The notes beneath the pieces are model-generated. The model was not told the origin of the DNA and did not search any database. It saw only the letters and a list, made by a program, of their open reading frames with translations. From a bacterium (GTDB taxonomy: Bacteria; Sysuimicrobiota; Sysuimicrobiia; Sysuimicrobiales; Segetimicrobiaceae), in contig DASYXS010000165.1 of assembly GCA_035934535.1 (NCBI GenBank), forward strand, positions 36 through 64,035: DNA of 64,000 nt. The letters run 5' to 3'. The first letter of the stretch is position 1, and every line of letters begins with the position of its first letter. The translations under genes and the position numbers were made by a program. Shown one piece after another: positions 2,783-44,749 of this stretch.

Positions 2783-3562
2783 ATGAGCCGGGGGATCGCG
2801 GTGTTCGCCGGCATTCCGGCAGACGTGATTCGCGCCTCGGCGCGCGAAACCGAGGCGCTCGGCTATCAGTCGTTCTGGGTGAACCATCCGCCGATGATCG
2901 ACGGGCTGGCCGCGCTCGCCGCGGCGGCCCGCGAGACCCGCCGTCTCGACCTGGGGGTCGGCGTGATTCCGCTGCACAATCGCGGGCCGAAGAGCATCGG
3001 CGACGGGGTGCGGACGAACGCCCTGCCGCAGGACCGGTTGCTGCTCGGCATCGGGAGCGCGAATCCGGAGGCGCTGCGCCGGATGCGGGAGGGGGTCGCG
3101 GAGCTTCGCGGGTCGCTCTCGTGCCGCGTATACGCCGCGGCCCTCGGGCCGAAGATGTGCCGGCTGGCCGGCGAGCTGTTCGACGGCGTGCTGCTCAACT
3201 GGCTTACCCCAGATCACGCCCGCCGCTCCGCGGAGTGGGTGCGTGCCGGGGCCGCCGAGGCGCGGCGCCCCGCACCGCGCCTCGCGGCCTACGTTCGGGT
3301 GGCGATCGGCCCGGCCGCGCGCGCGCGCCTCGCGGGCGAGGCCGGGCGGTACGGCGCGATTCCCGCGTACGCGGCGAGCTTCAAGCGCATGGGGGTCGCG
3401 CCGATGGAGACCTGCGTCGCGGTCGACGATCCGCACGCGGTGCCGCCGGCGCTCGCCGCATGGGACGAGGCGATCGATGACGTTGTCATCCGGGTGATCC
3501 CCGCCTCCGATACCGCAGACGACCATCTTGCCGTCGTGCGGGCGGCCCGACCGGTGACGTGA
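2783..3562 (+). CDS. luciferase-like monooxygenase (LLM) family oxidoreductase
   Basis: 259-aa ORF. The N-terminus (ETEALGYQSFWVNHP, LDLGVGVIPL) is typical of LLM/F420-type TIM-barrel oxidoreductases. Confidence 0.6.
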   Translation: MSRGIAVFAGIPADVIRASARETEALGYQSFWVNHPPMIDGLAALAAAARETRRLDLGVGVIPLHNRGPKSIGDGVRTNALPQDRLLLGIGSANPEALRRMREGVAELRGSLSCRVYAAALGPKMCRLAGELFDGVLLNWLTPDHARRSAEWVRAGAAEARRPAPRLAAYVRVAIGPAARARLAGEAGRYGAIPAYAASFKRMGVAPMETCVAVDDPHAVPPALAAWDEAIDDVVIRVIPASDTADDHLAVVRAARPVT

Positions 3563-3601: not shown

Positions 3602-4462
3602 ATGCCTGAGCTTCCGTTTGTCACGGTCGTCGTCGAAAATCTCGCGCCGCTCGTGGCCGGGCGGACCGTCGAGGACGTCGTCGTCCGCGGGGTGTCGGTG
3701 TTGAAGACGGTCCAACCGTCGATCGCCGATCTGCACGGCCGGCAGATCGCCGGCGTGCGCCGGCGCGCCAAGCTCCTGTTGCTCGACGTCACGGACGGCC
3801 TCGTGCTCGTGATCCACCTCCGGCGCAACGGCCGCCTCCGCGCCGTCCCGCGCGGAACCGGGCGCACCGCGCGGGACCTGGCACTCGTGCTGGCGCTCGA
3901 TCGCGGACCGGACATCCAGATGATCGAGATGGGCCCGAAGAAGGCCGCCTCGGTCTGGCTGTGTCCCGCGGACCGCCTGGACACGGCCGGGCCCCTTGCC
4001 GGCCTCGGCATCGAGCCGCTCTCCCCCGAATTCACTCGGGCAGCGCTCGCGGGGGCGCTGCGGGGCGCGCGGATGCGCCTCAAAGCCTTTCTCGTGACCC
4101 AGCGGTACGTCGTGGGGATCGGCAACACGTATGCGGACGAGATCCTGTGGGAGGCGCGTCTCTCGCCGCAGGCGATGACGACCACCCTCGACGAGGACGA
4201 GGTGCGCCGGCTCCACCACGCGATCACCGCGATCCTCGAGCGCGGCATCGACGTCCACCGGAGCGCAGCCGCCGGCGGGCTGCCGATGAAAGAGCCGCTC
4301 GAGGGTCTCGCGGTGCACCGTAAGGGCGGCGAGCCGTGTCCGCGGTGCGGGACCCGCATCGCCGTGATCTACTACGAGGACCGAGAGACGTATTACTGTC
4401 CGGCCTGCCAGGCGGAGGGCAAGGTCTACGCGGACCGGAGGCGCTCGCGGCTGCTTCGTTAG
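3602..4462 (+). CDS. Fpg/Nei family DNA glycosylase/AP lyase
   Basis: N-terminal MPELPFV (catalytic Pro2/Glu3), an H2TH region (GIGNTYADEILWEARLSP) and a C-terminal zinc finger CPRCG...YYCPACQ. Confidence 0.88.
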   Translation: MPELPFVTVVVENLAPLVAGRTVEDVVVRGVSVLKTVQPSIADLHGRQIAGVRRRAKLLLLDVTDGLVLVIHLRRNGRLRAVPRGTGRTARDLALVLALDRGPDIQMIEMGPKKAASVWLCPADRLDTAGPLAGLGIEPLSPEFTRAALAGALRGARMRLKAFLVTQRYVVGIGNTYADEILWEARLSPQAMTTTLDEDEVRRLHHAITAILERGIDVHRSAAAGGLPMKEPLEGLAVHRKGGEPCPRCGTRIAVIYYEDRETYYCPACQAEGKVYADRRRSRLLR

Positions 4463-13610: not shown

Positions 13611-13678
13611 GCGGCGTCAAGTTCGATGGTGGCCGGCCGCAGACGCTATGGCTCACGCCGTAGGCAGTCGGCCGGCGA
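13611..13678 (+). repeat. palindromic repeat family copy K (loop-expanded, 26-nt loop insert), in the mraZ 5' leader
   Basis: CGGCGTCAAGTTCGATGGTGGCCGGCCGC-[26 nt]-GTCGGCCGGCGAG. Both arms match the ileS copy (53761-53803). Confidence 0.7.
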
Positions 13679-13708: not shown

Positions 13709-14131
13709 ATGCTCAGGGGCGAAGCGCAGTACGCGCTGGACGACAAAGGGCGGGTGGTGATTCCGCCCAAATTTCGGGCGGTCATGGGCGACCGGATCAT
13801 CGTCACCCGGTGGACCGACCCGTGTCTTTTCGCCTTTTCCGCGCCTGAATGGCAGTCGCTTGAAGAGAAGCTCCGGACGCTGCCGTTGGGCCAGCACGAG
13901 GCGCGCCGGTACGTGCTGTCGGCGGCCGAAGATTGCGAGCTCGACCGGCAGGGCAGGATCTTTCTCGCGCCGCACCTGCGCGAGCACGCGAGCATCACGC
14001 GGTCGGTAACGATCATCGGGGTGGGGGGACACCTGGAACTCTGGAGCACCCCCGCCTGGCGCAGGCGGCTCCAGAAGGTTCGGAAGGCGCCGGAGGAACT
14101 GGCGCAGCAGCTCCAGGCGCTGACGCTGTAA
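13709..14131 (+). CDS. mraZ: transcriptional regulator MraZ
   Basis: 140 aa with two SpoVT/AbrB-like repeats (DDKGRVVIPPKFR, LDRQGRIFLAPHLR). First gene of the dcw cluster. Confidence 0.93.
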   Translation: MLRGEAQYALDDKGRVVIPPKFRAVMGDRIIVTRWTDPCLFAFSAPEWQSLEEKLRTLPLGQHEARRYVLSAAEDCELDRQGRIFLAPHLREHASITRSVTIIGVGGHLELWSTPAWRRRLQKVRKAPEELAQQLQALTL

Positions 14132-14216: not shown

Positions 14217-15176
14217 ATGCACGTTCCGGTGCTGGTGGACGAGGTGCTCGCGTACCTCGCGCCGCGGCCCGGCGCCGTCATTGTTGATGCGACGCTCGGT
14301 GAAGGCGGGCACGCGGAGGCGATTCTCCGCAAGATCGCGCCCGCCGGCCGGCTGGTCGGCTTGGACCGCGACGGCGAAGCGCTGGCGCGCGCGGAAGAGC
14401 GGCTGCGCCGGTTCGGACAGAACGTGACCCTGGCGCAGGCGAATTTCGGCGACCTGGACGAGGCGCTGAACGTGCTCGGCGTGGGGACGGTGGACGGGGT
14501 GCTGCTGGACATCGGGGTCTCGACGCGGCAGCTCATGGAGGCGGAGCGCGGATTCAGTTTCGACCGCGTCGGGCCGCTCGACATGCGCATGGATCGCGGC
14601 GAGTCCCGGACGGCCGCCGATTTGGTGAACGCGCTGCCGGAGCGCGACCTCGCCGACCTGATCTATCGCTACGGCGAAGAGCGGGCGTCGCGGAAGATCG
14701 CCCGGCAGATCGTGGCGCGGCGTCCGCTGCGGACGACGCGCGACCTGGCGCGCGCCGTCGAGGCGGCGGTGGGCGCGAGCCGCGGGCGGCTGCATCCCGC
14801 GACCCGGACGTTTCAGGCGCTGCGGATCGCGACGAACCGCGAGATCGAGTCGCTCGAACGCGCACTCCCGCAGGCGGTGCGGCGTCTCAGGCCGGGCGGC
14901 CGGCTCTGCGTGATCGCGTTCCACTCGATCGAGGACCGCGTCGTCAAGACGGCGCTCGCACGGTTCGCGCGCGGCTGCACCTGTCCACCCGGGCTGCCGG
15001 AGTGCCGGTGCGGCGGCGAGCGGCTCGTGCGGATTCTGACGAAGAAGCCGGTCACGGCGTCCGCGGCCGAAATTGCGCGCAACCCGCGCTCCCGGAGCGC
15101 GCGCCTGCGCGCGGCCGAGCGGTTGATCGATGCCGGCCGGCCGCCGGCCGGCCGGCAGAGCGGCGCCGCATGCTAG
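14217..15176 (+). CDS. rsmH: 16S rRNA (cytosine1402-N4)-methyltransferase RsmH
   Basis: HVPVLVDEVL, DATLGEGGH, DLGVSTRQL, FHSIEDRVVK and NPRSRSARLR motifs. GTG 14163 is an alternative start. The last ~16 codons derive from a repeat copy. Confidence 0.92.
   Translation: MHVPVLVDEVLAYLAPRPGAVIVDATLGEGGHAEAILRKIAPAGRLVGLDRDGEALARAEERLRRFGQNVTLAQANFGDLDEALNVLGVGTVDGVLLDIGVSTRQLMEAERGFSFDRVGPLDMRMDRGESRTAADLVNALPERDLADLIYRYGEERASRKIARQIVARRPLRTTRDLARAVEAAVGASRGRLHPATRTFQALRIATNREIESLERALPQAVRRLRPGGRLCVIAFHSIEDRVVKTALARFARGCTCPPGLPECRCGGERLVRILTKKPVTASAAEIARNPRSRSARLRAAERLIDAGRPPAGRQSGAAC
15125..15158 (+). repeat. palindromic repeat family copy F, forming the 3' tail of rsmH
   Basis: GATCGATGCCGGCCGGCCGCCGGCCGGCCGGCAG is translated as DAGRPPAGRQS. 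The ileS copy is translated as HGGRPPVGRQE. Confidence 0.5.
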
Positions 15177-15631: not shown

Positions 15632-17529
15632 ACCGGCGCCGTCCGTCACGGCCGCGCCGGCGCCGCCATACCGAGGACGGATCGGGGCCTCCCCGGATTC
15701 GCCTCGGCGCCACGAATCCGCGGGGTGATCGCGCCGCCCCGGGCCAGCCCGATGGCGACGCCCGCCGGCGGCTCGTCGCGTTATCGGGCGTCTGGCTCGT
15801 CGCGCTGGGCCTGCTCGCCGTCCGCATGGTCGATCTGCAGCTCGTCCGCGCCGGTGCGCTCGCGCGGCTCGCGGACCGCCAGCAGGTGGAGTCGCTGCGG
15901 CTGCCCGGCCGCCGGGGACAAATCCTCGACCAGGCCGGCCGCCCGCTCGCGATCAACGTCGAGGTCGATTCCGTCTACGCGGTGCCGAGGGCGATCGACG
16001 ACCCCGGCGCGTTCGCGCGCGCGGTCGGGCCCGCCCTCGGGCTCTCACCCGGCGGGGTGCAGGCGCGGCTGCGCCGCGGCGGCCCGTACTTCGCCTGGCT
16101 CGCGCGGCGGCAGCCCGCCGACGTCGCGGACCGCCTCCGCGCGCTCGATCTCGGCGAGACGGCCGGGATCGTCGCGGAATCGCGGCGTGCGTATCCGGCC
16201 GCGACGCTCGCCGCGAACCTCCTCGGGTTCACCGGCACCGACGACGCGGGGCTGGCGGGCCTGGAGCTCCAGTACGACCGTGTGCTGCGCGGCACCGGCG
16301 GGATCGAGGTGGCCGATCGGGACGCGATCGGCCGGGAGCTCATGCAGACGCAGCGCATCGTCACCCCGCCGCGAGACGGCGCGACGCTCGTGCTGACGAT
16401 CGACGAGGTCATCCAGCACATCGCCGAGCGCGAGGTCGCCCGCGCGGTGGAGCAGAGCCACGCCCGCGCCGGGCTGGCGATCGTCATGGATCCGGAGACC
16501 GGCGGGGTGCTTGCGCTCGCGGCGTCGCCGTCGTTCGATCCGAACCGGTATCAGGACGCGCCGCCGCGGTTGTGGAAGAGCCCCGCGGTCGCCGACGTGT
16601 ACGAGCCGGGGTCGACGTTCAAGCTGATCCTCGCGGCCGCGGCGCTCGACAGCCACGCCGTCACGCTCGCGGACCGGTGGACCGATCCGGGAAAGATTCG
16701 GATCAACGGTGCCTGGATCCATGACGCGGAACCCAACGAGCACTTCGAGTCGCTGGGCCTCGCGGACATCATCAAGTATTCCAGCAACGTCGGCGCGGCG
16801 CAGGTCGCCACGCGGCTCGGGAAGAACGCGATGTTCGCGTACATCCGCCGGTTCGGTTTCGGCCGCCCGACCGGCATCGATCTCCCGGGCGAGGCCGCGG
16901 GCATCGTGCGGCCCGTCGCGCAGTGGTACGGACCGAGCCTTCAGAACATCGCCTTCGGTCAGGGCATCTCCGTGACGCCGATCCAGCTGCTGGTCGCCGC
17001 CTCGTCGTTCGCCACGGACGGCCTCGCGGTGCGCCCGCACGTCGTCGCCGTCATCCGGGACGCCGCCGGCCGGACGATCTCGACGCCGGGCGACGTGACG
17101 CGGCGCCGGCTCATCGATGCAGGGGTGGCCGCGCAGGTGCTCGCGATGATGCGCGAGGTCGTGCGCGCCGGCACCGGCGTCAAGGCGCAGGTCGACGGCT
17201 ACACCGTGGCCGGCAAGACGGGAACCGCCCAGCGTCCCGGCCCGTCGGGCGGCTACGAACCGGGCGCGTACGTCGCGTCGTTCGTGGGCGTCGTGCCGGT
17301 GCCGTCTCCGCGCCTGGCGATCCTGGTGGTGGTCGACGGGCCGCGCGGCGTGTACTTCGGCGGCGACGTGGCGGCGCCGGTCTTCCACGAGATCGCGCGG
17401 CGGGCGCTGTGGTATCTTCGGGTGCCGCCCGAGGAGGCGCCCCAGGCGGCTTCAATGACGCCGCTACCGATGGCGGTGAGTCCGCCGGCGTGGCCGGCCG
17501 CGGGCCGGCCGGCACAGGCCCCGCGCTGA
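15628..17529 (+). CDS. ftsI: penicillin-binding protein 2B/FtsI (class B transpeptidase)
   Basis: ATGA overlap with ftsL. SxxK (GSTFK), SSN (YSSNVG) and KTGT (AGKTGTAQ) motifs are present. Confidence 0.9.
   Translation: MNRRRPSRPRRRRHTEDGSGPPRIRLGATNPRGDRAAPGQPDGDARRRLVALSGVWLVALGLLAVRMVDLQLVRAGALARLADRQQVESLRLPGRRGQILDQAGRPLAINVEVDSVYAVPRAIDDPGAFARAVGPALGLSPGGVQARLRRGGPYFAWLARRQPADVADRLRALDLGETAGIVAESRRAYPAATLAANLLGFTGTDDAGLAGLELQYDRVLRGTGGIEVADRDAIGRELMQTQRIVTPPRDGATLVLTIDEVIQHIAEREVARAVEQSHARAGLAIVMDPETGGVLALAASPSFDPNRYQDAPPRLWKSPAVADVYEPGSTFKLILAAAALDSHAVTLADRWTDPGKIRINGAWIHDAEPNEHFESLGLADIIKYSSNVGAAQVATRLGKNAMFAYIRRFGFGRPTGIDLPGEAAGIVRPVAQWYGPSLQNIAFGQGISVTPIQLLVAASSFATDGLAVRPHVVAVIRDAAGRTISTPGDVTRRRLIDAGVAAQVLAMMREVVRAGTGVKAQVDGYTVAGKTGTAQRPGPSGGYEPGAYVASFVGVVPVPSPRLAILVVVDGPRGVYFGGDVAAPVFHEIARRALWYLRVPPEEAPQAASMTPLPMAVSPPAWPAAGRPAQAPR
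17487..17518 (+). repeat. palindromic repeat family copy H, in the ftsI C-terminal tail
   Basis: GGCGTGGCCGGCCGCGGGCCGGCCGGCACAGG is translated as AWPAAGRPAQA. The arms match the family core. Confidence 0.45.
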
Positions 17530-19099: not shown

Positions 19100-20601
19100 T
19101 GCCGGTCTCGATCTCCGCCGCCGATGCCGCCCGGCTTGCGGGCGGCGCGGTCGTCCACGGTGATCCCGCGGCGTTCGTCTGCGGCGCCGCGGTCGACAGC
19201 CGGGCGGTCGAGCCCGGGATGCTGTTCGTCGCGCTGCGCGGCGAGCACGCCGACGGCCACCGGTTCGTCGGCGAGGCGCTGCGCCGCGGCGCCGGGGCGG
19301 CGCTGATCGCCGCCGGCGCCCCCGCCAGCGATGTCCCCCCTGCGGGCGCGGTGCTGATCCGGACGGCCGACACGCTGCTCGGGCTGCAGCGCCTCGGCCG
19401 GGGACTGCGGGACCGCCGGCCGCTCCGCGTCGTCGGCATCACCGGCAGCGTCGGCAAGACGTCGACCAAAGAGATGACGGCGCTCGTGCTCGCGGAGCGG
19501 TTCGAGACCGCGCGGTCGCCCGAGAACTGGAATACAGAGATCGGCATCCCGCTCGTGCTCGTCAACCTGCCCGCGGCCGCCTCGGTCGCCGTCCTCGAGC
19601 TGGCGATGCGGGGGCCCGGCCAGATTCGTGAGCTCGTGGAGATCGCCCACCCGCAGATCGGCGTCGTGACGGCGATCGGCGAGTCCCACATGGACTTCTT
19701 TGAGACCCGCGAGCAGCTTGCCGCCGCGAAAGGCGAGCTGATCGAAGGCCTGCCGCCGGACGGGGTCGCGGTGCTCAACGCCGACGACCCGCTGGCGCTG
19801 AGTCTGGCCGGCCGGGGACCGGCGCGCGTGATGACGTTCGGGTTCGGCGAGGCGGACGCCACGGCCCGGGGCGTCCGCATGCGGCCGGGGGAGGGCAGCG
19901 CGTTCGTCCTGCGGGTCGGGGGAGACGAGGCCCCGGCCGCGCTGGCCGTCCCGGGGCGGCACGCGATCCGCAACGCGCTCGCGGCCGCGGCGGTGGGGGC
20001 GGCGCTCGGCATCCCCGCGGCCGAGATCGCGCGCGGCCTCGGCCGCGCGCGCGCGATGCCGAAGCGCCTGGAGGTGCTGCGGCTCGGCGGGGCCGTCGTG
20101 ATCAACGACGTGTACAACAGCAGCCCGCGCTCGATGGAGGCCGCGCTCGACGTGATGGACGAGTTTGCGGGACGGCCGCGGATCGCGGTTCTCGGCGACA
20201 TGCGCGAGCTCGGCGCCCTCTCGATGGAGGTCCACCGTCGGGTCGGACGCGAGGTGGCGCGCCGGGGAATCGACACGCTGATCGCGCTCGGCCCCCTGGC
20301 GGCGGACCTGGCCGGGGCCGCCGGCGAGGCGGGACTGCCGTGCGTCGTGCGCACGATCGCTCCCGCGGAGGCGCTCGACGCGCTGCGGCGCGAGATCCGC
20401 CCCGGCGCCGTGGTGCTGGTGAAGGGCTCGCGGGCGCTGGCGATGGAGCAGATCGTCGACGCCCTCCGGCAGGAGGCCGCGAAGGCGGCCGGAGGTCCCG
20501 CGCAGACGGGGCAGGAGGCCGCGAAGGCGGCCGGAGGTCCCGCGCAGACGGGGCACGAAGCCCCGGCCGTGGACGCCGCGGCGGGCCACCATGTCAGCTG
20601 A
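19099..20601 (+). CDS. murF: UDP-N-acetylmuramoyl-tripeptide--D-alanyl-D-alanine ligase, with an extended repeat-derived C-terminal tail
   Basis: GTGATG junction with murE. Contains GITGSVGKTSTKE and the Mur ligase middle and C-terminal domains. A ~45-aa tail follows the conserved ALAMEQIV end. Confidence 0.9.
   Translation: MPVSISAADAARLAGGAVVHGDPAAFVCGAAVDSRAVEPGMLFVALRGEHADGHRFVGEALRRGAGAALIAAGAPASDVPPAGAVLIRTADTLLGLQRLGRGLRDRRPLRVVGITGSVGKTSTKEMTALVLAERFETARSPENWNTEIGIPLVLVNLPAAASVAVLELAMRGPGQIRELVEIAHPQIGVVTAIGESHMDFFETREQLAAAKGELIEGLPPDGVAVLNADDPLALSLAGRGPARVMTFGFGEADATARGVRMRPGEGSAFVLRVGGDEAPAALAVPGRHAIRNALAAAAVGAALGIPAAEIARGLGRARAMPKRLEVLRLGGAVVINDVYNSSPRSMEAALDVMDEFAGRPRIAVLGDMRELGALSMEVHRRVGREVARRGIDTLIALGPLAADLAGAAGEAGLPCVVRTIAPAEALDALRREIRPGAVVLVKGSRALAMEQIVDALRQEAAKAAGGPAQTGQEAAKAAGGPAQTGHEAPAVDAAAGHHVS
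20470..20553 (+). repeat. perfect 42-bp tandem duplication (2 units), in frame in the murF 3' tail
   Basis: CAGGAGGCCGCGAAGGCGGCCGGAGGTCCCGCGCAGACGGGG occurs at 20470-20511 and identically at 20512-20553. It encodes QEAAKAAGGPAQTG twice. Confidence 0.97.
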
Positions 20602-21618: not shown

Positions 21619-23195
21619 TCGCCGGCGGACCGCCTGCCGGCGGACTCGCCGGCAACCATGACATCAGAGCCGACGTGGTCGCGCGCCTGCGCGGCCGCCG
21701 CATCCATGTTCTCGGCCTCTCCGGCACGGAGGGCTCAACCGTCGTCGACTTTCTCCTCGCGCACGGCATCACGACGATCACCGCGCACGATCTCGCCGGC
21801 CCCGACGCGTTTCCGGGCGCGTTCCGCCGCACGCATCAATGGATGACGCCCGACGAGCAGACCGCGGCGCTCGAGCGGCTCGCCCGCGCGCCGATCACGC
21901 GCTGCTTCGGCGACCGCTACCTCGACGGCATCGACGCCGCCGAGATCATCTACGTGACCCAGGCTTGGTTTCGGCACGCCGGGAACGAGCCGGTCCGCCG
22001 CGCCCGGGACCGGGGCGTGCCGCTCAGCAGCATGACGGCGCTGTTCTTCGAGACGGTTCCCTGTCCGATCGTGGGGGTCACCGGCACGAACGGTAAGTTC
22101 ACCGTCGTGCGCCTCGCCGCGATGATGCTGGCGCGGAGCGGCCGCGCGACGTTCGAGACCGGCAACGACCGTACGCACGTGCCGATTCTGTACCGGCTCG
22201 CCGAGGTCACGCCGGAGGCGGTGCTCGTGGTCGAGATCAGCAACCGCCAGCTGGTGGGGCTCGGGTACAGCCCGCACGTCGCGGTCGTGACGAACGTCGC
22301 CGCCCATCATCTCGACGACCACGGCTCGTTCGAAGCGTACGCCGAGACGAAGCGCGGGATTCTCGCCTACCAAGGCGCGGGCGATTGGGCGCTGCTCAAC
22401 GGCGACGATCCGGTCGCGCGGGGGTTCGCCGCGGGCGCGCGCGGCCGGGTGCTCTTCTCGAGCCGCACCCGGCCGATCGACGAGGGCGCGTGCGTCGTGG
22501 ACGGCCGGATCGTGCTGCGGCTCGACGGGCGGGAGGACGACCTGGCGGACGCGCACCTGCAGTCGCCGGGGACACACACCCTTGAGAACGCGCTGGCCGC
22601 CGCCCTGGCCGCGCGCGTTGCCGGCGCCGACGCGGGCGCGATCGGCGCCGTGCTGCGCGAGTTTCGCGGCCTGCCGCACCGCCTCGCCCTCATCGCCGAG
22701 GCCGGCGGCGTCCGGTACTATGAAGATTCGCTCGCGACCAACCCGGCCGCCGCGGCGGCCGCCGTGCGCGCGTTCGACGGCCCGCTCGTGCTGCTGGCCG
22801 GCGGTATGCGGCGCAACGCGTCGGCGCAGGACTTCGCGCCGGTCGCCGAAGCGCTCGCCGCGCGGACCGTGCGCGGCGTCGTTCTCTTCGGCACGATGGC
22901 GCCGCTGCTCGCCGAGGCGATCGCCGCCGCGGGGGTGACCGCGCCGGTGGTGCGGTGCACGACGCTCGACGAGGCGGTGCCCGCGGCGCGGGCGCTCGCG
23001 CAGCCGGGCGACGCCGTGAGTCTGTCGCCCTCGTGCGAGAGCTTCGACCAGTACCGGGACTACCGCCACCGGGCGGAGCACTACCAGGCGCTGGTCGAGG
23101 CGCTTGCCCGTGACGACGCGGAGGGCGCAGCCACCCGGCCGTCCGCGGGTTCCCGCGACGGCACCAACGCGACGGGAGGCCGCTCGTGGACCTGA
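21615..23195 (+). CDS. murD: UDP-N-acetylmuramoylalanine--D-glutamate ligase (long form, atypical motifs)
   Basis: GTGA overlap with mraY. Contains VTGTNGKFT (P-loop), AHHLDDHGSFEAY and LSPSCESFDQY. Position in dcw supports the call. Confidence 0.8.
   Translation: MIAGGPPAGGLAGNHDIRADVVARLRGRRIHVLGLSGTEGSTVVDFLLAHGITTITAHDLAGPDAFPGAFRRTHQWMTPDEQTAALERLARAPITRCFGDRYLDGIDAAEIIYVTQAWFRHAGNEPVRRARDRGVPLSSMTALFFETVPCPIVGVTGTNGKFTVVRLAAMMLARSGRATFETGNDRTHVPILYRLAEVTPEAVLVVEISNRQLVGLGYSPHVAVVTNVAAHHLDDHGSFEAYAETKRGILAYQGAGDWALLNGDDPVARGFAAGARGRVLFSSRTRPIDEGACVVDGRIVLRLDGREDDLADAHLQSPGTHTLENALAAALAARVAGADAGAIGAVLREFRGLPHRLALIAEAGGVRYYEDSLATNPAAAAAAVRAFDGPLVLLAGGMRRNASAQDFAPVAEALAARTVRGVVLFGTMAPLLAEAIAAAGVTAPVVRCTTLDEAVPAARALAQPGDAVSLSPSCESFDQYRDYRHRAEHYQALVEALARDDAEGAATRPSAGSRDGTNATGGRSWT
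21621..21672 (-). repeat. palindromic repeat family copy I (reverse orientation), in the murD 5' end
   Basis: CCTGCCGGCGGACTCGCCGGCAACCATGACATCAGAGCCG resembles the reverse complement of the ileS copy, CCTGCCGGCCGACAGGCGGCCGGCCACCATGTAAGTCAAGCCG. The spacing from CCATG to the terminal GCCG is identical. Confidence 0.5.
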
Positions 23196-24361
23196 TTCAC
23201 CGGCGCGGCGCCGCGTGGGGTCTCTTTACGATCGTCCTGCTGCTCACGTGCATCGGCATCGTGATGGTGTACAGCGCGAGTTCGGTCGCGGCGCAGGCGC
23301 AGTATCATGACGGCACCTGGTTCCTGAAGCGCCAGCTGTTGTATGAGCTGATCGGGCTCGCGGGCATGTCGGCGGCGTGGCGGATCCACTACGTGCGCCT
23401 CAGGCGCTTCACGTTTCCGCTGCTGCTCGGGACGCTCGTCAGCCTCGTGCTCGTGCTGATCCCCCACGTCGGCCGCGTGGCCGGCGGCGCGCGGCGGTGG
23501 ATCTCCTTCGGCGGTCCCCTCAACTTCCAGCCGGCCGAGCTGGCCAAGCTCGCGCTGATTCTCTACTTGGCGCACTTCCTCGCCAACCGCGGATCCCGGA
23601 CGCGCGAGTTCGGCGCCGGGATGATTCCGCCGCTCGTGGTGCTCGGCCTCGCGGCGCTGCCAATCTTAAAACAGCCCGACCTCGGCTCGGCGCTGATCCT
23701 CGTCATCATCACCTTCGTGATGCTCTTTGTGGGCGGCGCGCGGCTCACGCATCTCGCCGGCGTCGGGGCGCTCGCGGTGCCGGCGGTGCTCGGCGTCATT
23801 CTGCGCGCGGGCTACCGCAGCCAGCGCCTCCTGGCGTTCCTCCACCCGTGGCGTGATCCGCGCGGCAGCGGCTTCCACATCATCCAGTCGCTGCTCGCGA
23901 TCGGCTCCGGCGGCCTCGTCGGATTGGGGCTCGGGCACAGCCGGCAGAAGTTCTTCTATCTGCCGGAGCGCCACACCGACTTTATCTTCGCGATCATCGG
24001 CGAGGAACTCGGCCTCATCGGCAGCATCGTCGTGATCGTGCTGTTCGCCTTACTCGCGGTCTGGGGATACCGGATCGCGACGCGCTGTCCCGACCGATAC
24101 GGCGCGCTGCTCGTCTCCGGGCTCACGACGATGCTCGTCGGGCAAGCGGTCCTCAACATCGGCGTCGTCTCCGGGTCGTTGCCGATCACCGGAGTCCCGC
24201 TGCCGTTCATCAGCTTCGGCGGGTCGTCGCTCGTACTGAACGACATCGCCGTCGGCATCCTCTTGAACGTCTCCCAGTACGCGCGTCCCGAAGAGGAGGT
24301 CGTCACCTCGAAATCGCGGGGCGCGATCGTCCGCCGGCACTCCGCCTGGGCCCGCGGATGA
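23186..24361 (+). CDS. ftsW: SEDS-family peptidoglycan glycosyltransferase FtsW
   Basis: 10-TM SEDS protein with the motifs QPAELAKLALILYLA, FIFAIIGEELGLIG and PLPFISFGGSS. Confidence 0.92.
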   Translation: MDLIHRRGAAWGLFTIVLLLTCIGIVMVYSASSVAAQAQYHDGTWFLKRQLLYELIGLAGMSAAWRIHYVRLRRFTFPLLLGTLVSLVLVLIPHVGRVAGGARRWISFGGPLNFQPAELAKLALILYLAHFLANRGSRTREFGAGMIPPLVVLGLAALPILKQPDLGSALILVIITFVMLFVGGARLTHLAGVGALAVPAVLGVILRAGYRSQRLLAFLHPWRDPRGSGFHIIQSLLAIGSGGLVGLGLGHSRQKFFYLPERHTDFIFAIIGEELGLIGSIVVIVLFALLAVWGYRIATRCPDRYGALLVSGLTTMLVGQAVLNIGVVSGSLPITGVPLPFISFGGSSLVLNDIAVGILLNVSQYARPEEEVVTSKSRGAIVRRHSAWARG

Positions 24362-25536
24362 ACCTCGTGCTCGCCGGCGGCGGCACGGGCGGCCATGTCT
24401 ATCCCGCGCTGGCGCTCGCCGCCGCGCTGCGCCGCCGCGATCCCGCCGCGCGGGTGCTGTTCGTCGGCAGCGGGTCGGGCATGGAGGCGTCGCTCGTCCC
24501 GGCCGCCGGCGTCCCGTTTGCCGGCCTCATGGTGCGGCCGCCGCGCAGCCGCTCGCCGCTCCGCACGGCGGTGGCGCTCGGGACCGCGGCCGTGGGATTC
24601 GTGCAGTCCGCCGCGATCGTCGCCCGGTTCAGACCCGACGCCGTCGTCGCGACCGGGGGCATCGCCGCGGCGCCGCCGGTTCTCGCGGCGTGGGTCATGC
24701 GCGTCCCCGTCGTGCTGCTCGAGGGTAACGCCGCGCCGGGGCGCGCGAACGCCTTCCTGGCGCGGTTCGCCCGCGCCGTCGCGGTGACGTCGGACGACGC
24801 GTCGGCGCGCATCCCGGGGGGCCGGGCCCTCGTGACCGGTCTTCCGGTCCGCCCGGAGATCTACTCGACGCCGCGCACGGACGGGCTCGGCGCCTTCGGA
24901 TTGGATCCCGCGCGGCGGACGATTCTGGCGATCGGGGGGAGTCAGGGCGCGGCCCGCCTCAACGCCGCCGTGGATGAGATGGCGATGCATTTGGCGGGCC
25001 GGACAGATCTCCAGGTCCTGCATCAGACCGGCCGCGGCTGGCGCGCCGGCGGCACGGCGGATCCGCCGTCCGCTCCGCTCCCGGCAACGATGACACTGCA
25101 GCCGCCGGCCGCGCCGGGATTGGAGCCCGGCATCCGGCACGTGCGGGTGCCGTACCTCGAGCAGATCGGCCTGGCGTACGCGTGCGCCGATGTGGTGATC
25201 AGCCGCTGCGGCGCCACGGCGCTGGCCGAGATCACGGCGTGCGGACTGCCGGCCGTGCTCGTGCCGTACCGCTACGCGGCCGGGGGCCACCAGGCGGAGA
25301 ACGCGGCGCCGCTCGTCCGCGCCGGCGCGGCGTCGCTCGTCGCCGACGAGGCGATGGACGGAGAAACCTTGGCCCGCGAGGTGCTCGGAATCCTCGAGAC
25401 GCCCGGCCGCCGGGACGCGATGGCCGCGCGGTCCAGGGCGCTCGGCCGTCCCGACGCCGCGGACCGGGTCCTCGCCCTGCTGGAGCGGCTCCGCAGCGGC
25501 GCCCCGGCGGCCGTGTCGAAGGAATCCCACGCATGA
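24358..25536 (+). CDS. murG: UDP-N-acetylglucosamine--N-acetylmuramyl-(pentapeptide) pyrophosphoryl-undecaprenol GlcNAc transferase
   Basis: ATGA overlap with ftsW. Contains GGTGGHVYPALA and the C-terminal RCGATALAEI...GGHQAENA. An in-frame repeat copy lies inside. Confidence 0.92.
   Translation: MNLVLAGGGTGGHVYPALALAAALRRRDPAARVLFVGSGSGMEASLVPAAGVPFAGLMVRPPRSRSPLRTAVALGTAAVGFVQSAAIVARFRPDAVVATGGIAAAPPVLAAWVMRVPVVLLEGNAAPGRANAFLARFARAVAVTSDDASARIPGGRALVTGLPVRPEIYSTPRTDGLGAFGLDPARRTILAIGGSQGAARLNAAVDEMAMHLAGRTDLQVLHQTGRGWRAGGTADPPSAPLPATMTLQPPAAPGLEPGIRHVRVPYLEQIGLAYACADVVISRCGATALAEITACGLPAVLVPYRYAAGGHQAENAAPLVRAGAASLVADEAMDGETLAREVLGILETPGRRDAMAARSRALGRPDAADRVLALLERLRSGAPAAVSKESHA
25055..25107 (-). 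repeat. palindromic repeat family copy A (53-nt long variant), in frame inside murG
   Basis: Its reverse complement is 49/53 identical to 26950-27002. Within MurG it is translated as ...TADPPSAPLPATMTLQPP... Confidence 0.9.
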
Positions 25537-27038
25537 CCGCATCCGGCAGCCATACCGACCCCGCCGCCAGCGGCCTGCCGATTGTCCGGGGCGCGCGCAC
25601 CCATTTCGTCGGCATCGGCGGAGCCGGGATGAGCGGCATCGCCCGCGTGCTGCTGGCGCGCGGCTGCGCCGTGTCCGGCTCCGACCTCCGGGAGAGCGAG
25701 ACGACGCGGCGCCTCAGGGCGGCCGGCGCGGTCGTGTACATCGGACACGCGGCGTCCAACGTCGAGGGCGCCCAGATCGTCATCGTCAGCCGCGCGGTGG
25801 CCGACGAGAACGTCGAGGTGCGCGTCGCGGTCGCGCGCGGGCTGCCGATCGTGCACCGGGCGCGGATGCTGGCCGAGCTCATGCGCGACCGCGACGCGAT
25901 CGCGGTTGTCGGCACCCACGGCAAGACGACGACGACCGCCATGCTCGGCGCGATCCTCGCGCGGGCCGGCCGGGATCCGACCGTGCTGGTCGGCGGCGAC
26001 GTCGCCGCTTTCGGCGGAACCGCGCGCGTCGGGGACGGGCGCGACGTCGTCGCGGAGGTGGACGAGAGCGACGGGTCGCTCGTCTGGGTCGCGCCGTCCA
26101 TCGCCGTCGTGACGCCGCTCGACGCCACCGACCACCTCGACTTCTACGGCTCCGAAGCGCGGCTCATGGAGACGTTCCGGCGGTTCCTCGCCGCCGTGCC
26201 GGCCTCCGGGTTCGCCGCGGTGTGCACCGACGCCCCCGCGGGCCGGGCGCTGGCCCGGGACGCGGGATCGCGCACCGTGACGTACGGGCTCGACGGCGAC
26301 CCGGCGTACCGCGGCCGGGTGCTCGAGGCCGCGGGCCACCGCACCGTCGTCGAAGCTCAGCGCGGCGACGCGGTCGTCGGCCGGATCGAACTGGCGGTCC
26401 CCGGCGCCTACAATGCGCAGAACGCGATCGGCGCGCTCGCCGTCGCGACGGAGCTCGGCATCCCCCAGGACGTCACCGCCGGGGCGCTCGCGGCGTTCGA
26501 GGGCGTCGCCCGCCGGTTCAGCGTGCGCGGCGACGTCGACGGTGTTCTCGTCGTGGACGACTACGCCCACAATCCGACCAAGGTGGCGGCCCTGCTCGCC
26601 GCGGCCCGCCGCGGCTGGCCGGCGGCGCGGATTGTGGCGGTGTTCCAGCCGCACCGGTTCACGCGCACGCAGACCGTGGGCCACCAGTTCGCGCGCGTGT
26701 TCGACCCGGTCGACGAGGTGATCGTGACCGAGATCTACGCGGCCGACGAGCCGCCCATCCCCGGCGTGAACGCGGGGATCATCGTGCGGGCCGTGAGCGC
26801 GCACCGGCCCGTCCGGTTCGTGCCCGATCTCGGCGACGCCGCGGCGCTGGTGGCCGCCGAAGCGCGGTCTGGGGACCTGGTCCTGACAATCGGGGCCGGC
26901 GATGTGTGGAAGGTCGCCGAGGACGTCACCGCGCGGCTGCGGGGACGGTCGGCGGCTCCAGTGTTATCGTTGCCGGGAGCGGAGCGGACGGCAGGTCCGC
27001 CGGCCGCGCCGAGCGGCGCGGAGGCCCCGCGTGGCTAA
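25533..27038 (+). CDS. murC: UDP-N-acetylmuramate--L-alanine ligase
   Basis: ATGA overlap with murG. Contains GIGGAGMSGIA and GTHGKTTTT. The C-terminal ~30 aa derive from a repeat copy. Confidence 0.92.
   Translation: MTASGSHTDPAASGLPIVRGARTHFVGIGGAGMSGIARVLLARGCAVSGSDLRESETTRRLRAAGAVVYIGHAASNVEGAQIVIVSRAVADENVEVRVAVARGLPIVHRARMLAELMRDRDAIAVVGTHGKTTTTAMLGAILARAGRDPTVLVGGDVAAFGGTARVGDGRDVVAEVDESDGSLVWVAPSIAVVTPLDATDHLDFYGSEARLMETFRRFLAAVPASGFAAVCTDAPAGRALARDAGSRTVTYGLDGDPAYRGRVLEAAGHRTVVEAQRGDAVVGRIELAVPGAYNAQNAIGALAVATELGIPQDVTAGALAAFEGVARRFSVRGDVDGVLVVDDYAHNPTKVAALLAAARRGWPAARIVAVFQPHRFTRTQTVGHQFARVFDPVDEVIVTEIYAADEPPIPGVNAGIIVRAVSAHRPVRFVPDLGDAAALVAAEARSGDLVLTIGAGDVWKVAEDVTARLRGRSAAPVLSLPGAERTAGPPAAPSGAEAPRG
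26950..27002 (+). repeat. palindromic repeat family copy B (53-nt long variant), in the murC 3' tail
   Basis: CGGCGGCTCCAGTGTTATCGTTGCCGGGAGCGGAGCGGACGGCAGGTCCGCCG. It is 49/53 identical to the reverse complement of 25055-25107 and shares a 26-nt identical core with 44700-44725. Confidence 0.9.
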
Positions 27039-35517: not shown

Positions 35518-38500
35518 ATGTCCGCCGCCGATTCGATTAGGCCTAATTCTATCCAGGGGGAAGCACCGATGGCGATGACGTCGGACAACCAGACATCGCA
35601 GCCGTCCATCACCGCGGAGGGTACCGCCCAGATTGCCGCGCCCGCGGAAGCGCGCCGTCCGGAGCCGGCCGCGCTCCCCTCGGACACCCTGGGGTTCTTC
35701 AAGGGGGACGAGCTTCGCGCCCGCGTCTTCCACGACAAGTATGCGCTGCGCGACCCGGACGGCCGCGTGCTGGAGCCCACCCCGGTCGAGATGTGGCGGC
35801 GGATCGCCGGCGGCCTCGCCTCGGTCGAGCCGACGGCGGAAGCCCGCGAGCGCTACGCCGGCGAGTTCTACTGGCTGATGGAGAACTTCCGCTTCATCCC
35901 CGGCGGCCGCATCATGCACGCGATCGGCAACAACAAGCGCGTGACCGCGCTCAACTGCTTCCCGGCCGGTACCAAGGTGGTGACCCGGGACGGCATCCTG
36001 CCGATCGAGTTGATCAAGCCGGGGCAGGAAGTGCTGACGCACAAGAACCGCTTCCGGCCGGTGACCCACGTTCTGTACCGTGACGTCGATGAACCGTTGC
36101 GGATGCTCAAGTTCTGGTACCTGAGCGACCAACCAATACGTGCCACCGGCAGTCATCCGTTCTGGGCCTACGACGGAACCAGAGTGGGCTGGGTCGAGGC
36201 CAAAGATCTCACGACTGACCACTACATTAAGGTGGGTCGGATCGCCGAAACGCTGCCATCGTGGGATCTTGAACTTCAGAACTTCGTAAGCGATGGGATC
36301 GAAGAAATGGCTGGCATGATGTATAAGACCGCCGCGCATGTCGCCGGGCACGGCGCGAGGCGCGTTAGTCGAAGCCTGCCGATTCGGAAAGCCATCTCAT
36401 TTGATGAGCGCTTCGGCCTGTGGCTGGGCTTTTTTATGGCTGAAGGCGGCGTGAATGACAATAACGTCTACTTTACCTTCAACAGAAATGAAGCATCGTA
36501 CGCGAAAACCGTTAGTAGTTTGACCCGCGAGCTCTTTGGTATCGACGCATCGATCGACTGGCGTGAGGGCCAACCCAGTAATTGGATCCGGGTATGGATT
36601 CACAGCAAGCTGCTGGTAGAGTTTGTTCGGTCATGGTGCGGTGGTGCTACTCACGTCCACAACAAGAAACTGCCGGCCTGGTTCCTTACCGCTCCGACAT
36701 CGGTTCAAAAGGCGTTCGTCGCGGGTTTGTTCAAAGGCGATGGCGTCATTGGTCGCAACTTCATAAAGATCTTTCTCGCCAATCCGGAGCTGGTGCGGCA
36801 GATCTTCCTTCTCCTGGTGCGTTTGGGGATCGCGCCATCGATTCGCTGGGAAGGCATACTCAAATACACGCGGCACCGCGGCATGTGGATCAACATCGGT
36901 ACCCGCCGGTACATCGGAGCGATCCGCGCGTGGCTCAACGGTGATTACTCGTACGACTCGGAGTTTGAGGAGAGCCATCGCAACTACTTCTACAAGGTTG
37001 TTGATGGCGATCTGTTTGTTAAGGTCAAGCGCGCAGATTGGACAGAACCTCGTCGCGAAACCGTGTACGATCTTACTGTCGACGATGATCACTCGTTCGT
37101 TGCCGAGTTCGTCAACGTCTCAAATTGTTACGTTCTTCCCATAAAAGAAGATTCCATCGAAGCGATCTTCGAGTGGACGAAGGAAGCGGCGCGCACCTAT
37201 TCGCTCGGCGGTGGCGTAGGTGGCGACATCAGCATCCTGCGGCCCGCGGGCGCGCCGGTGAACAACTCCGCGCGCTCCAGCACCGGTTCGGTCTCGTTCA
37301 TGGAGCTGATGTCGCTTACGACCGGCACGATCGGACAGAGCGGCCGGCGTGGCGCCTTGATGATCACGATCGCCGACGATCATCCGGACGTGCTCGCGTT
37401 TACCAAGATCAAGCGCAACATGGACAAGGTCCGCTACGCGAACATCAGCGTGCGCGTCAGCGACGCGTTCATGCGCGCCGTCGAGGCGGACCAGCCGTGG
37501 ACGCTCAAGTTCAAGAACGAGCGGGTGGGCGTCGAGAGAACGGTGCAGGCACGCGAGATCTGGCGTGAATTGATTTACGGCGCTACTCATCACGCGGAAC
37601 CCGGCATCATCTTCTGGGATTCCATCAAGCGGTGGAGCACGTCCGAGTACAACAACATGAATGTAATCACGACCAATCCGTGCAGTGAGATCCCTTTGGA
37701 ACCATATGGAGCGTGCTGTCTTGGTAACCTCGGGCTCCAAGAATTCGTGCTAGACGAGTTTAGCCCCCAGGCGCAGGTGGACTGGCCCCATCTGGAGCAT
37801 GCATTGCGGCTGGCGACCCGGTTCCTAGACGACGTCCTCACATACAACGCAGACAAACATCCCCTCCCCGCTCAACGGGAAGCCAGCCTCTACTCGCGGC
37901 GCATCGGGGTCGGTTTCACCGGCCTGGGGGATATGCTGTGCAAGTTGCGCCTCAAGTACGACACGAAGGAGGCGGTAGAGTTCGTCGACCGGACGTTCGA
38001 GCGGATCAAGAACATCGTGTACGATGAGAGCGTCAACCTCGCGATCGAGAAGGGGACGTTCCCAGGGTACGACCGGGAGCAGCATCTGGGGGGCGCTTTC
38101 CTCCAGACGCTCGCGCCTGAGGTCCTCGAGCGGATTCGGGAGCACGGTCTTCGCAACGTCGCGCTGCTCACCGTGCCGCCGGTCGGAAGCGGCGCGGCCC
38201 TTGCCGGCACCACGAGCGGCATCGAACCAATCTTCGACCTGGGGTACACGCGGCGGAGCGAGTCGCTCTCGCAGCAGAAGTTCACCGTCTACCACCCGCT
38301 CGTCCGGTCGTACATGGAGCGGTTCGGGGTTGAGGATGAGGACGCGCTGCCGGAGTTCTTCGTCACCGCGCATGAGATCCAGCCCGACATGCGCGTGCAG
38401 ATGCAGGCGGCGATTCAGAAGCACATCGACCACTCGATCTCCTCGACGGTCAACTGCGCCGCGGACACGACCGAGGAAGGTGTGGCTCAGATCTACTTCC

Positions 38501-39288
38501 TCGCCTGGAAGATGGGCTGCAAAGGCATCACAGTCTACCGTGAGAATTCGCGCGAGAACATCCTGACCGCCGGTGTTAAGAAGGACAAACCGGCGCAGGC
38601 CGCCTCGGACCAGGCGGTGCCGGCAGCGGCAGAGCCGTCCGCGGCGTCGGCCGTGCTCGGCGTGTCGCACGGCGCGGAGGAGTCCCGGCCCCAGACACGC
38701 GCGCGGCCCAAGGTCACGACCGGACGGACCGAGCGGATCGAGACGCCCCGCGGCCGGATCTACGTGACGATCAATGAGGACACCAAGGGCATCTGCGAGG
38801 TGTTCGTTCAGTCGCTCGACGTCGAAGCGGATGCGGTCGGCCGGCTCGCCTCGCTTGCGCTGCGGACCGGCGCGGATTCGCGCCACGTGATCGAGCAGCT
38901 GTGGCGCGTCCAGTCCCGCGAGGTCGCGATCGACCGGTCGAGTGACGGCACCGTGGTGCGCATCACCACGATCGCGCAGGGCGTCGCGCTGGCGCTCGGG
39001 CGGGCGCTCTACGGCCCCAGCTTCAGGCCGGACCAGGTGTTCCCGATGGCGGACAGGCTGCCCGCGCCGGCCCCGAAGAACGGTAACGGTCACGGAAACG
39101 GCCACGGCACCAACGGACACGACCAGCCGGCGACGGCCGTCGCGGCACCCGCGCCGGTCGCGACCGAGACCCGCGAAATTCAGGAGCCGCTGCTGACCTT
39201 CGCCGGCGTCTGTCCGGACTGCGGCGGATCGCTGGCCTTCGAAAACGGCTGCAGCCACTGCCGGAGCTGCGGATACTCGAAATGCTAG
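35518..39288 (+). CDS. nrdJ: adenosylcobalamin-dependent (class II) ribonucleotide reductase, intein-containing precursor
   Basis: The exteins carry FIPGGRIMHAIGN, ..ALN|C-YVLP, the finger loop TTNPCSEIPL, and a C-terminal CPDCG...CSHCRSCG zinc ribbon. A 390-aa intein interrupts the ORF. Confidence 0.9.
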   Translation: MSAADSIRPNSIQGEAPMAMTSDNQTSQPSITAEGTAQIAAPAEARRPEPAALPSDTLGFFKGDELRARVFHDKYALRDPDGRVLEPTPVEMWRRIAGGLASVEPTAEARERYAGEFYWLMENFRFIPGGRIMHAIGNNKRVTALNCFPAGTKVVTRDGILPIELIKPGQEVLTHKNRFRPVTHVLYRDVDEPLRMLKFWYLSDQPIRATGSHPFWAYDGTRVGWVEAKDLTTDHYIKVGRIAETLPSWDLELQNFVSDGIEEMAGMMYKTAAHVAGHGARRVSRSLPIRKAISFDERFGLWLGFFMAEGGVNDNNVYFTFNRNEASYAKTVSSLTRELFGIDASIDWREGQPSNWIRVWIHSKLLVEFVRSWCGGATHVHNKKLPAWFLTAPTSVQKAFVAGLFKGDGVIGRNFIKIFLANPELVRQIFLLLVRLGIAPSIRWEGILKYTRHRGMWINIGTRRYIGAIRAWLNGDYSYDSEFEESHRNYFYKVVDGDLFVKVKRADWTEPRRETVYDLTVDDDHSFVAEFVNVSNCYVLPIKEDSIEAIFEWTKEAARTYSLGGGVGGDISILRPAGAPVNNSARSSTGSVSFMELMSLTTGTIGQSGRRGALMITIADDHPDVLAFTKIKRNMDKVRYANISVRVSDAFMRAVEADQPWTLKFKNERVGVERTVQAREIWRELIYGATHHAEPGIIFWDSIKRWSTSEYNNMNVITTNPCSEIPLEPYGACCLGNLGLQEFVLDEFSPQAQVDWPHLEHALRLATRFLDDVLTYNADKHPLPAQREASLYSRRIGVGFTGLGDMLCKLRLKYDTKEAVEFVDRTFERIKNIVYDESVNLAIEKGTFPGYDREQHLGGAFLQTLAPEVLERIREHGLRNVALLTVPPVGSGAALAGTTSGIEPIFDLGYTRRSESLSQQKFTVYHPLVRSYMERFGVEDEDALPEFFVTAHEIQPDMRVQMQAAIQKHIDHSISSTVNCAADTTEEGVAQIYFLAWKMGCKGITVYRENSRENILTAGVKKDKPAQAASDQAVPAAAEPSAASAVLGVSHGAEESRPQTRARPKVTTGRTERIETPRGRIYVTINEDTKGICEVFVQSLDVEADAVGRLASLALRTGADSRHVIEQLWRVQSREVAIDRSSDGTVVRITTIAQGVALALGRALYGPSFRPDQVFPMADRLPAPAPKNGNGHGNGHGTNGHDQPATAVAAPAPVATETREIQEPLLTFAGVCPDCGGSLAFENGCSHCRSCGYSKC
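35956..37125 (+). mobile_element. intein with a LAGLIDADG homing-endonuclease domain (390 aa) in nrdJ
   Basis: Block A CFPAGTKVVT, block B ATGSHPFW, LAGLIDADG motifs LWLGFFMAEGG and FVAGLFKGDGV, block F VYDLTVDDDHSFVA, block G FVNVSN followed by +1 Cys (TGT 37126-37128). The segment is visibly more AT-rich than its flanks. Confidence 0.9.
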
Positions 39289-44652: not shown

Positions 44653-44660
44653 CGATCCGC

Positions 44661-44732
44661 GTTAATTTCATGGTGGCCGGCCGCTCGGGTTTCATGTTGG
44701 CCGGGAGCGGAGCGGACGGCAGGTCGGCCGGC
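44661..44732 (+). repeat. palindromic repeat family copy C (compound: short left half plus long variant), in the phnD-phnC spacer
   Basis: GTTAATTTCATGGTGGCCGGCCGCTCGG followed by GTTTCATGTTGGCCGGGAGCGGAGCGGACGGCAGGTCGGCCGGC. The 26-nt core is identical to copy B. Confidence 0.88.
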
Positions 44733-44749
44733 ATTCACGGGAGCATCCC

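Follow-up and report, generated by a model that had tools for sequence, protein, structure and literature searches.

The window analysed here is the whole stretch of 64,000 nucleotides from contig DASYXS010000165.1 of assembly GCA_035934535.1 (Segetimicrobiaceae, Sysuimicrobiota). Its GC content is ~70%, and the metagenome runs that contain it come from soil, mine, wetland and sediment. Between 13.7 and 31.5 kb the window carries a compact division and cell wall (dcw) cluster with the gene order mraZ, rsmH, ftsL-like, ftsI, murE, murF, mraY, murD, ftsW, murG, murC, murB, ftsQ, ftsA, ftsZ, in which most adjacent genes overlap by a few bases. One copy of a GC-rich interspersed repeat lies within murG and is translated in frame with it. 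A second copy, on the opposite strand, is found in the tail of murC, and a third in an intergenic spacer. The genes and copies concerned are as follows.

24358-25536, plus strand: murG coding sequence, 392 amino acids, with the open reading frame uninterrupted and in frame through the element
25533-27038, plus strand: murC coding sequence, 501 amino acids
25051-25128, minus strand: murG copy, a long element of ~78 nt encoding MurG residues 232-257 (copy alignment and nhmmer)
25128-25104, minus strand: unit 1 of the murG copy
25103-25081, minus strand: unit 2 of the murG copy
25080-25061, minus strand: core of the murG copy, GAGCGGAGCGGACGGCGGAT
25060-25051, minus strand: degenerate closing-stem arm of the murG copy
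26947-27004, plus strand: murC-tail copy, with unit 2, core and closing stem and without unit 1
44657-44734, plus strand: intergenic full-length copy, co-oriented with transcription (nhmmer and open reading frames)

The repeat copies and the build of the element

The reverse complement of 25055-25107 is identical to 26950-27002 at 49 of 53 positions, and the murG reading frame is intact, in agreement with an earlier sequence-only reading of the window, which had described an in-frame interspersed repeat copy within murG, inverse to the copy in the murC tail. A repeat search returned arms of 57 nt (25055-25111 and 26946-27002, 91% complementary and 1834 nt apart) together with the third copy at 44675-44732. 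The 21-nt core GCCGGGAGCGGAGCGGACGGC is exact at 25065-25085 (minus strand), 26972-26992 (plus strand) and 44700-44720 (plus strand), with 0.04 exact matches expected from shuffles. With the family profile (nhmmer), the murG copy was found at 25054-25126 on the minus strand (E = 1.6e-18), and the murC-tail and intergenic copies at 26947-27004 (E = 1.3e-14) and 44658-44733 (E = 1.7e-20), both on the plus strand. The neighbours of the intergenic copy are a phnD-like phosphonate-type substrate-binding gene, which ends at 44652, and a phnC-like ATP-binding cassette ATPase gene, which starts at 44750.

The 53-nt match taken as the element in the sequence-only reading is real, but the element extends farther to the right, because unit 1 (25104-25128 in murG) also aligns with the other copies. 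The full element (~78 nt, ~75% GC) consists of two direct units of ~23 nt (consensus ...TTAATTTCATGGTGGCCGG), a 20-nt core, GAGCGGAGCGGACGGCAGGT, which is nearly invariant among the copies, and a GC-rich closing stem. Unit 1 has the intergenic consensus GCGTTAATTTCATGGTGGCCGGC, and unit 2, CGCTCCRRTTTCATGGTGGCCGG, is its direct repeat. The closing arm CGGCCGGC pairs with GGCCGGCCG at the end of unit 1, forming an 8-bp GC stem that encloses unit 2 and the core; the "loop" of the long element is 41 nt, and the short variants are simple hairpins. Single-sequence folding is uninformative at this GC content, and the structure given by RNAalifold was a different one, with no covariation, so the closing stem was tested explicitly. 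Its pairing reaches 91% over seven copies, versus 21-66% in slid registers, among 500 shuffles 3-5 did as well as the observed values, and the changes at two positions are compensatory (for example GGCCGGCCG/CGGCCGGC, GGCCCGCGG/CCGCGGGC and CGGCGG/CCGCCG). Rfam contains no family matching the element, either at gathering thresholds or with E values up to 10.

The reading frame of the element differs from gene to gene. In murG it is frame -0 (peptide ADPPSAPLPATMTLQPPA), in murC frame +2 (peptide AAPVLSLPGAERTAGPPA), and in two related organisms, in the rsmH tail of L035 (AGRPAVRSATGHHEIGAAGNHEINA) and the murD tail of L030, frame -2. Because three frames/strands are used across the genes, the similarity within the family is purely at the DNA level, with no conserved peptide, as had been claimed for the likeness to the MurC tail.

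The loop in MurG and the sites in related organisms

The host gene is murG, and its product is a GT28 glycosyltransferase with two Rossmann-like domains and the expected motifs. Pfam domains PF03033 and PF04101 are present in homologues of the window MurG, a PDB sequence search (phmmer) returned the Escherichia coli and Pseudomonas aeruginosa enzymes (1f0k and 3s2u, E = 9e-40), and the alignment shows little or no variation in GGTGGHVYP, the glutamate of LAEITA, and GHQxxNA; the Gly-rich loop at the N terminus and the C-domain motifs for UDP-GlcNAc binding are conserved. The AlphaFold2 model, built with 47 homologues (mean pLDDT 87.5, pTM 0.87), has its best Foldseek matches in the MurG structures 3s2u, 1nlm and 1f0k, with target-normalised TM-scores of 0.78-0.86. 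Within the reading frame the copy is translated as ...GGTADPPSAPLPATMTLQPPAAPGLEPG..., and the element-encoded residues 232-254 are the sole internal stretch with pLDDT below 50. Residues 224-259 are modelled as coil between the strands 218-223 (LQVLHQ) and 260-264 (HVRVP), and in the alignment the insert takes the place of residues 222-244 of the E. coli enzyme, past the HQSG strand in the C domain. According to the model, the insert very probably forms a floppy surface loop compatible with the fold; the surface loop expected in the sequence-only reading is thus recovered as a disordered coil, although inside the C domain and not at the hinge between the N and C domains. We take MurG to be very probably functional, since its reading frame is intact, its motifs are conserved and independent samples retain the insert.

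The distance from HQTG to YLEQ is 40 residues, versus 23 in the alignment with E. coli MurG, which bears out the earlier description of a longer linker of ~40 amino acids. The agreement then seen between this excess and the size of the element is, on the other hand, largely coincidental: the element is ~78 nt and not 53 nt, and across 46 homologues the linker from HQTG to (Y/F)xxx varies within 23-55 residues. Nothing is conserved past "RGW", a GVPAA tandem repeat occupies the linker of one relative, and the peptide is unconserved even at 88% overall identity; orthologues share no homologous peptide at this position, as the sequence-only reading requires. Since the linker is variable in length and unconserved in sequence past "RGW", the clade would already have lost structure at this MurG loop.

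Contigs of related organisms (L027-L039) were used for comparison, with murG nucleotide identity to the window computed outside the linker. This identity is 98.7% for L027, 93.8% for L030, 92.2% for L028 and 90.6% for L033, and for the farther relatives 84.9% (L035) and 77.2% (L037). The copy is not unique to this genome: L027 carries the long element, and the corresponding site of L030 has a short variant of the family, likewise oriented. The L027 sequence is an independent Logan contig from another sample (MurG 97% identical), in which the in-frame insert is present and has acquired six substitutions. Linker divergence from the window thus amounts to 6 of 87 nt, versus 14 of 1092 elsewhere in the gene (Fisher p = 0.002), and five of the six changed codons are non-synonymous, which fits a passenger peptide under relaxed constraint.

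In L030 the murG linker is longer and different, and its 3' end has unit 1 followed by an 8-bp hairpin, GCTGGCGG-CTGGT-CCGCCGGC. This remnant, with the build of the short variant, scores E = 0.011 against the family profile, and its unit 1 matches that of the L030 murC copy at 24 of 28 positions, a value reached by 2 of 500 shuffles. The murG linkers of L028, L033, L035 and L037 gave local alignments that seemed by eye to be remnants, and these were dropped after the same kind of test, as they were not above chance (85-420 of 500 dinucleotide shuffles), and only L030 passed; the murG of L039 gave no match to the family profile. The linkers of the nearest relatives are unrelated and 31-34 residues long. 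Older linker sequence must have been lost, because adding the element to a linker like that of L028 would give more than the 87 nt found in the window.

As judged by comparison of orthologous sites, the clean empty sites at murC and rsmH are cleaner evidence of insertion than murG. The murC-tail copy is translated as ...RSAAPVLSLPGAERTAGPPA... and lies ~30 nt upstream of the overlap of the murC stop and the murB start (GTGGCTAA), and the window MurC (501 residues) is 25-27 residues longer than element-free orthologues (474 and 476 residues). The tail is empty in L035, L037 and L039 (474, 476 and 473 residues, respectively), contains unit 1 and a short hairpin in L028 and L033, unit 1, unit 2 and the core in L030, and unit 2 and the core in the window. 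These inserts are always placed upstream of the conserved ...GAEAPRG-stop end and the overlap with murB. The rsmH tail is an insertion hot spot. It ends in ...ERLIAC-stop in L033 (~1020-1036), a clean empty site, and carries inserts of 36 nt in L037 and of 132 nt, including a long element, in L035; all the rsmH inserts are in frame, and the AC-stop end is kept. Further copies and short palindromes are listed below.

15128-15166, window: short GC palindrome in the rsmH tail, GCCGGCCGGCCG-CCGG-CCGGCCGGC, a 39-nt in-frame insert
17492-17513, window: GGCCGGCCGCGGGCCGGCCGGC, a short palindrome in the part of the ftsI-like penicillin-binding protein gene that encodes the C-terminal tail (pattern match and translation)
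214-258, L030: copy in the murD tail (E = 2e-6), translated AAGRDEIEAAGRDD
4094-4169, L030: copy in the murC tail
3260-3333, L031: copy upstream of a spoVS-like gene
3981-4017, L032: copy between uvrB and uvrA, the TTAATTT of which provides the uvrB stop codon
987-1061, L035: copy within the C-terminal tail of rsmH

The palindrome in the ftsI tail may plausibly be related to the long family; the pattern GGCCGGCCGC N3-30 GGCCGGC has four matches in the window, versus 0.03 expected. Two of the three window copies are intragenic. The intergenic copies (window, L031 and L032) are all co-oriented with transcription and stand at the 3' ends of the upstream genes, and the genes flanking them are functionally unrelated (phnC-like, uvrA and spoVS-like).

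The number of copies was estimated from Logan unitigs and contigs of four metagenome runs from two studies (X1-X4). The depth of the core is 5-9 times that of the flanks in X1, X2 and X4, with 6-10 distinct contigs matched per run, and 36 times in X3, with 18 contigs; the unitigs branch at the murC copy into several alternative flanks. Core depth and contig counts together suggest ~10 long copies per genome. A scan of JGI metagenomes with a 29-nt degenerate core gave only two further copies.

Several other observations were made in the window and its relatives. The murD tail at 23100-23195 (RDDAEGAATRPSAGSRDGTNATGG) is possibly a decayed version of the element; the C-terminal tails of MurD vary among relatives. 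L039, an 83%-identical relative in which murG and murC lack copies, has a unit-like match at 14020-14046 in the ftsA-ftsZ spacer (E = 4e-4). The GGCCGGCCGC...GGCCGGC palindrome occurs also at 13631-13676, upstream of mraZ. The isoleucyl-tRNA synthetase gene has a short palindrome, GGCCGGCCGCCTGTCGGCCGGC, at 53763-53800, translated GGRPPVGRQ, a peptide nearly the same as that of the rsmH-tail palindrome, in a loop 11 residues longer than in the Thermus thermophilus enzyme (1ile); it may be another in-frame copy, with a weak score against the long-element profile (E = 0.33). The C-terminal tail of MurF shows an in-frame length change of another kind, a perfect 42-nt tandem duplication (20468-20551) translated as QEAAKAAGGPAQTG twice. 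The gene for the large subunit of ribonucleotide reductase (35518-39288, plus strand, 1256 residues) includes an intein, which carries a LAGLIDADG endonuclease domain (Pfam Intein_splicing, Hint_2 and LAGLIDADG_3) and coincides with a dip in GC content to 57% at 36-38 kb; another essential gene of the window therefore bears, in frame, a selfish element unrelated to the repeat. A bacterial class A RNase P RNA is located at 311-662 on the plus strand (Rfam, 296 bits).

Explanations for the copy in murG

We consider it probable that the murG segment belongs to an interspersed palindromic repeat family that is lineage-specific and low in copy number, comparable to repetitive extragenic palindromes (REPs) and bacterial interspersed mosaic elements (BIMEs) and functionally resembling the Rickettsia palindromic elements (RPEs), and that its peptide is a tolerated passenger. 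From the distribution among relatives we infer that murG acquired the element in an ancestor shared by this organism and the relatives at 97-94% (L027 and L030). The likely source would be the copy in the adjacent murC tail, or one closely related to that, and the copy would have landed in antisense in a C-domain surface loop that was already disordered and variable in length. Translation of the element (residues 232-257) would simply follow from the open frames of GC-rich sequence, resulting in a neutral, fast-evolving, Pro/Ala-rich passenger peptide. The family would occupy the permissive places of a gap-less dcw operon, namely the rsmH, murD and murC tails upstream of the stop/start overlaps, as well as ordinary intergenic spacers. 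Candidate means of spread are a transposase acting in trans, template switching and gene conversion.

Some results weigh against this explanation. The murG site offers no clean empty counterpart among the relatives, although an alignment of orthologues had been expected to give one, and the insertion there is deduced only from the phylogenetic distribution, L030 having the short variant at the site. The copy number is low in comparison with classical REPs. In an exact scan of GTDB representative genomes the 21-nt core was not found in the context of the element; the 26 loci returned are chance matches, in which only 21-25 nt match the core and not the element. No transposase was found among the ten non-dcw window proteins scanned with Pfam, the functions of which are ordinary. 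No target-site duplication was seen: the murG, murC and rsmH inserts are not bordered by direct duplications, and the GGCACG motifs beside the insert cannot be counted as such, because they are kept in element-free relatives. Finally, the closing stem is partly broken in the murG copy, and the folding energy of the individual copies is not better than that of shuffles of the same composition (z from -0.5 to -1.9).

The murG segment could instead have been produced by a local inverted duplication or gene conversion, with the murC tail, which lies 1.8 kb downstream, as the direct source. One such route would be replication in which the template is switched between inverted GC-rich palindromes; no transposition-like spread would be involved, and gene conversion may later have homogenised the copies. 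The two copies are indeed close together and inverted. Over 56 shared columns the murG copies are identical to the murC-tail copies at 48-50 positions, versus 44-48 for the intergenic, rsmH and L031 copies, and unit 1 of the L030 murG is nearer to its own murC unit 1 (24/28) than to unit 1 of the window murG (~22/30, by eye). These similarities make a local origin of the murG copy from the murC-tail lineage plausible, by transposition-like copying or by template switching. The present murC copy of the window cannot have been the direct template, however, because it lacks unit 1, which the murG copy has. Moreover, a local event accounts for this one copy only, whereas the family is dispersed over unrelated loci and organisms, and as the whole explanation we regard it as unlikely.

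Short and long forms alternate at orthologous sites, a pattern that could result from insertions nested in hairpins or from repeated loss of sequence between the direct units. The murG loop is short in L030 and long in the window and L027; the rsmH tail is short in the window, long in L035 and empty in L033; the murC tail has the short form in L028 and L033, the long form in L030 and the window, and neither in L035, L037 and L039. For the murC tail the change from short to long is the more parsimonious on the host tree. It is conceivable, though doubtful, that unit 2 and the core (~45 nt) constitute an active structure-targeting element, inserting repeatedly into the loops of short GC hairpins without target duplication. 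If true, a hairpin-directed, nested and frame-compatible mobility would be reshaping, in a systematic way, essential genes of a gap-less operon at their tails and loops.

A function of the structured nucleic acid itself, as a REP-like hairpin stabilising or processing mRNA or as a protein-binding site kept for a role in the dcw transcript or DNA, would be in line with the covariation of the closing stem, the almost invariant 20-nt core, and the co-orientation of the three intergenic copies at the 3' ends of the upstream genes. We find it improbable, as the murG copy is antisense to the mRNA with a degenerate closing stem and evolves faster than its host gene, the folding z-scores are not significant, Rfam gives no match, and the intergenic copies flank unrelated genes. 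More improbable still is a selected protein feature, that is, a Pro/Ala-rich flexible linker recruited by MurG for membrane or divisome contacts, with the DNA similarity being incidental. A low-complexity loop of 23-55 residues is kept throughout the clade, but its peptide is not conserved among close homologues, the substitutions between the window and L027 are mostly non-synonymous, the same DNA yields unrelated peptides in other genes, and AlphaFold2 predicts no structure. An assembly artefact or chimera, to which a GC-rich repeat with de Bruijn unitigs breaking at its murC copy could give rise, can practically be dismissed, since single unitigs of X1 (3018 nt), X2, X3 and X4 span 25051-25128 with zero differences and the L027 contig has the same in-frame insert with its own substitutions.

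Relation to known repeats and meaning

The element that we favour as the origin of the murG segment was compared with four kinds of known systems. RPEs (Ogata et al. 2000, 2002; see the summaries in PMC10969869 and PMC1779305) are AT-rich repeats of 100-150 bp, restricted to Rickettsiales, for which a conserved peptide has been reported. They are found in frame in housekeeping and essential genes at permissive surface positions, as exemplified by the RPE-7-like insert of 63-84 bp in PheT (PMC10969869, PMC1779305). The present element is likewise palindromic, translated, and shared or decayed among related species. Its copies are both intergenic (44657-44734 in the window, L031 and L032) and in frame within genes (murG and the murC, rsmH and murD tails), and in MurG its predicted position is a permissive one at the surface, compatible with the fold. 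It differs in length (~78 nt) and GC content (~75%), in belonging to a free-living soil lineage, in the absence of a conserved peptide and in having no sequence similarity to RPEs. It is an analogue of RPEs and not a member of them.

REPs and BIMEs are short GC-rich hairpins; REPs are imperfect palindromes of 20-40 nt, mostly extragenic and present in tens to hundreds of copies per genome. The present element may share the hairpin form in part, through its 8-bp stem and its short variants, although the long form measures 78 nt. In both cases the copies are mostly located just downstream of open reading frames in co-directional or convergent spacers, some supply stop codons, and the build is a modular mosaic. 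Some REPs lie wholly within open reading frames, and such intragenic REPs encode 20-30 amino acids, mostly near the 3' ends of the frames (Di Nocera et al. 2013, PMC3733652). The differences are the two direct units observed here, versus inverted dimers, and apparently the copy number, estimated at ~10, versus hundreds. Neither GTAG nor CGTC is conserved next to the stem in the 7-8 aligned copies, CGTC being present only in the murC copies of L030 and L033. We know of no gene for a REP-associated tyrosine transposase (RAYT, IS200/IS605-like) belonging to this family.

[quoted passage not shown] In contrast to them, it has its inverted arms in the interior, unit 1 being placed beyond the stem, and neither a target-site duplication nor a parent insertion sequence was identified. 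The likeness to inteins is limited to selfish DNA being tolerated in frame within an essential gene: inteins remove themselves and carry a homing endonuclease, whereas MurG retains the repeat peptide, which lacks any enzymatic machinery. Taken with these comparisons, the element represents a previously undescribed repeat family in a new lineage, and the phenomenon is of a known kind.

For the annotation of high-GC genomes this implies that Pro/Ala/Gly-rich tails and loops may be translated repeats. MurG residues ~224-259 (222-244 in E. coli MurG) are marked as a naturally permissive insertion site, and the inverted pair of copies, with 1.8 kb between them, could give rise to rearrangements in the operon. 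In the overlapped dcw operon the repeats accumulate only in C-terminal tails and in one disordered loop, producing much of the length variation among orthologues, and the alternation of short and long forms at fixed sites is the most interesting point. The presence of selfish DNA within genes that code for proteins is thereby extended beyond Rickettsia and a few proteobacteria, to a high-GC, uncultured, free-living soil lineage and to an essential enzyme of peptidoglycan synthesis.

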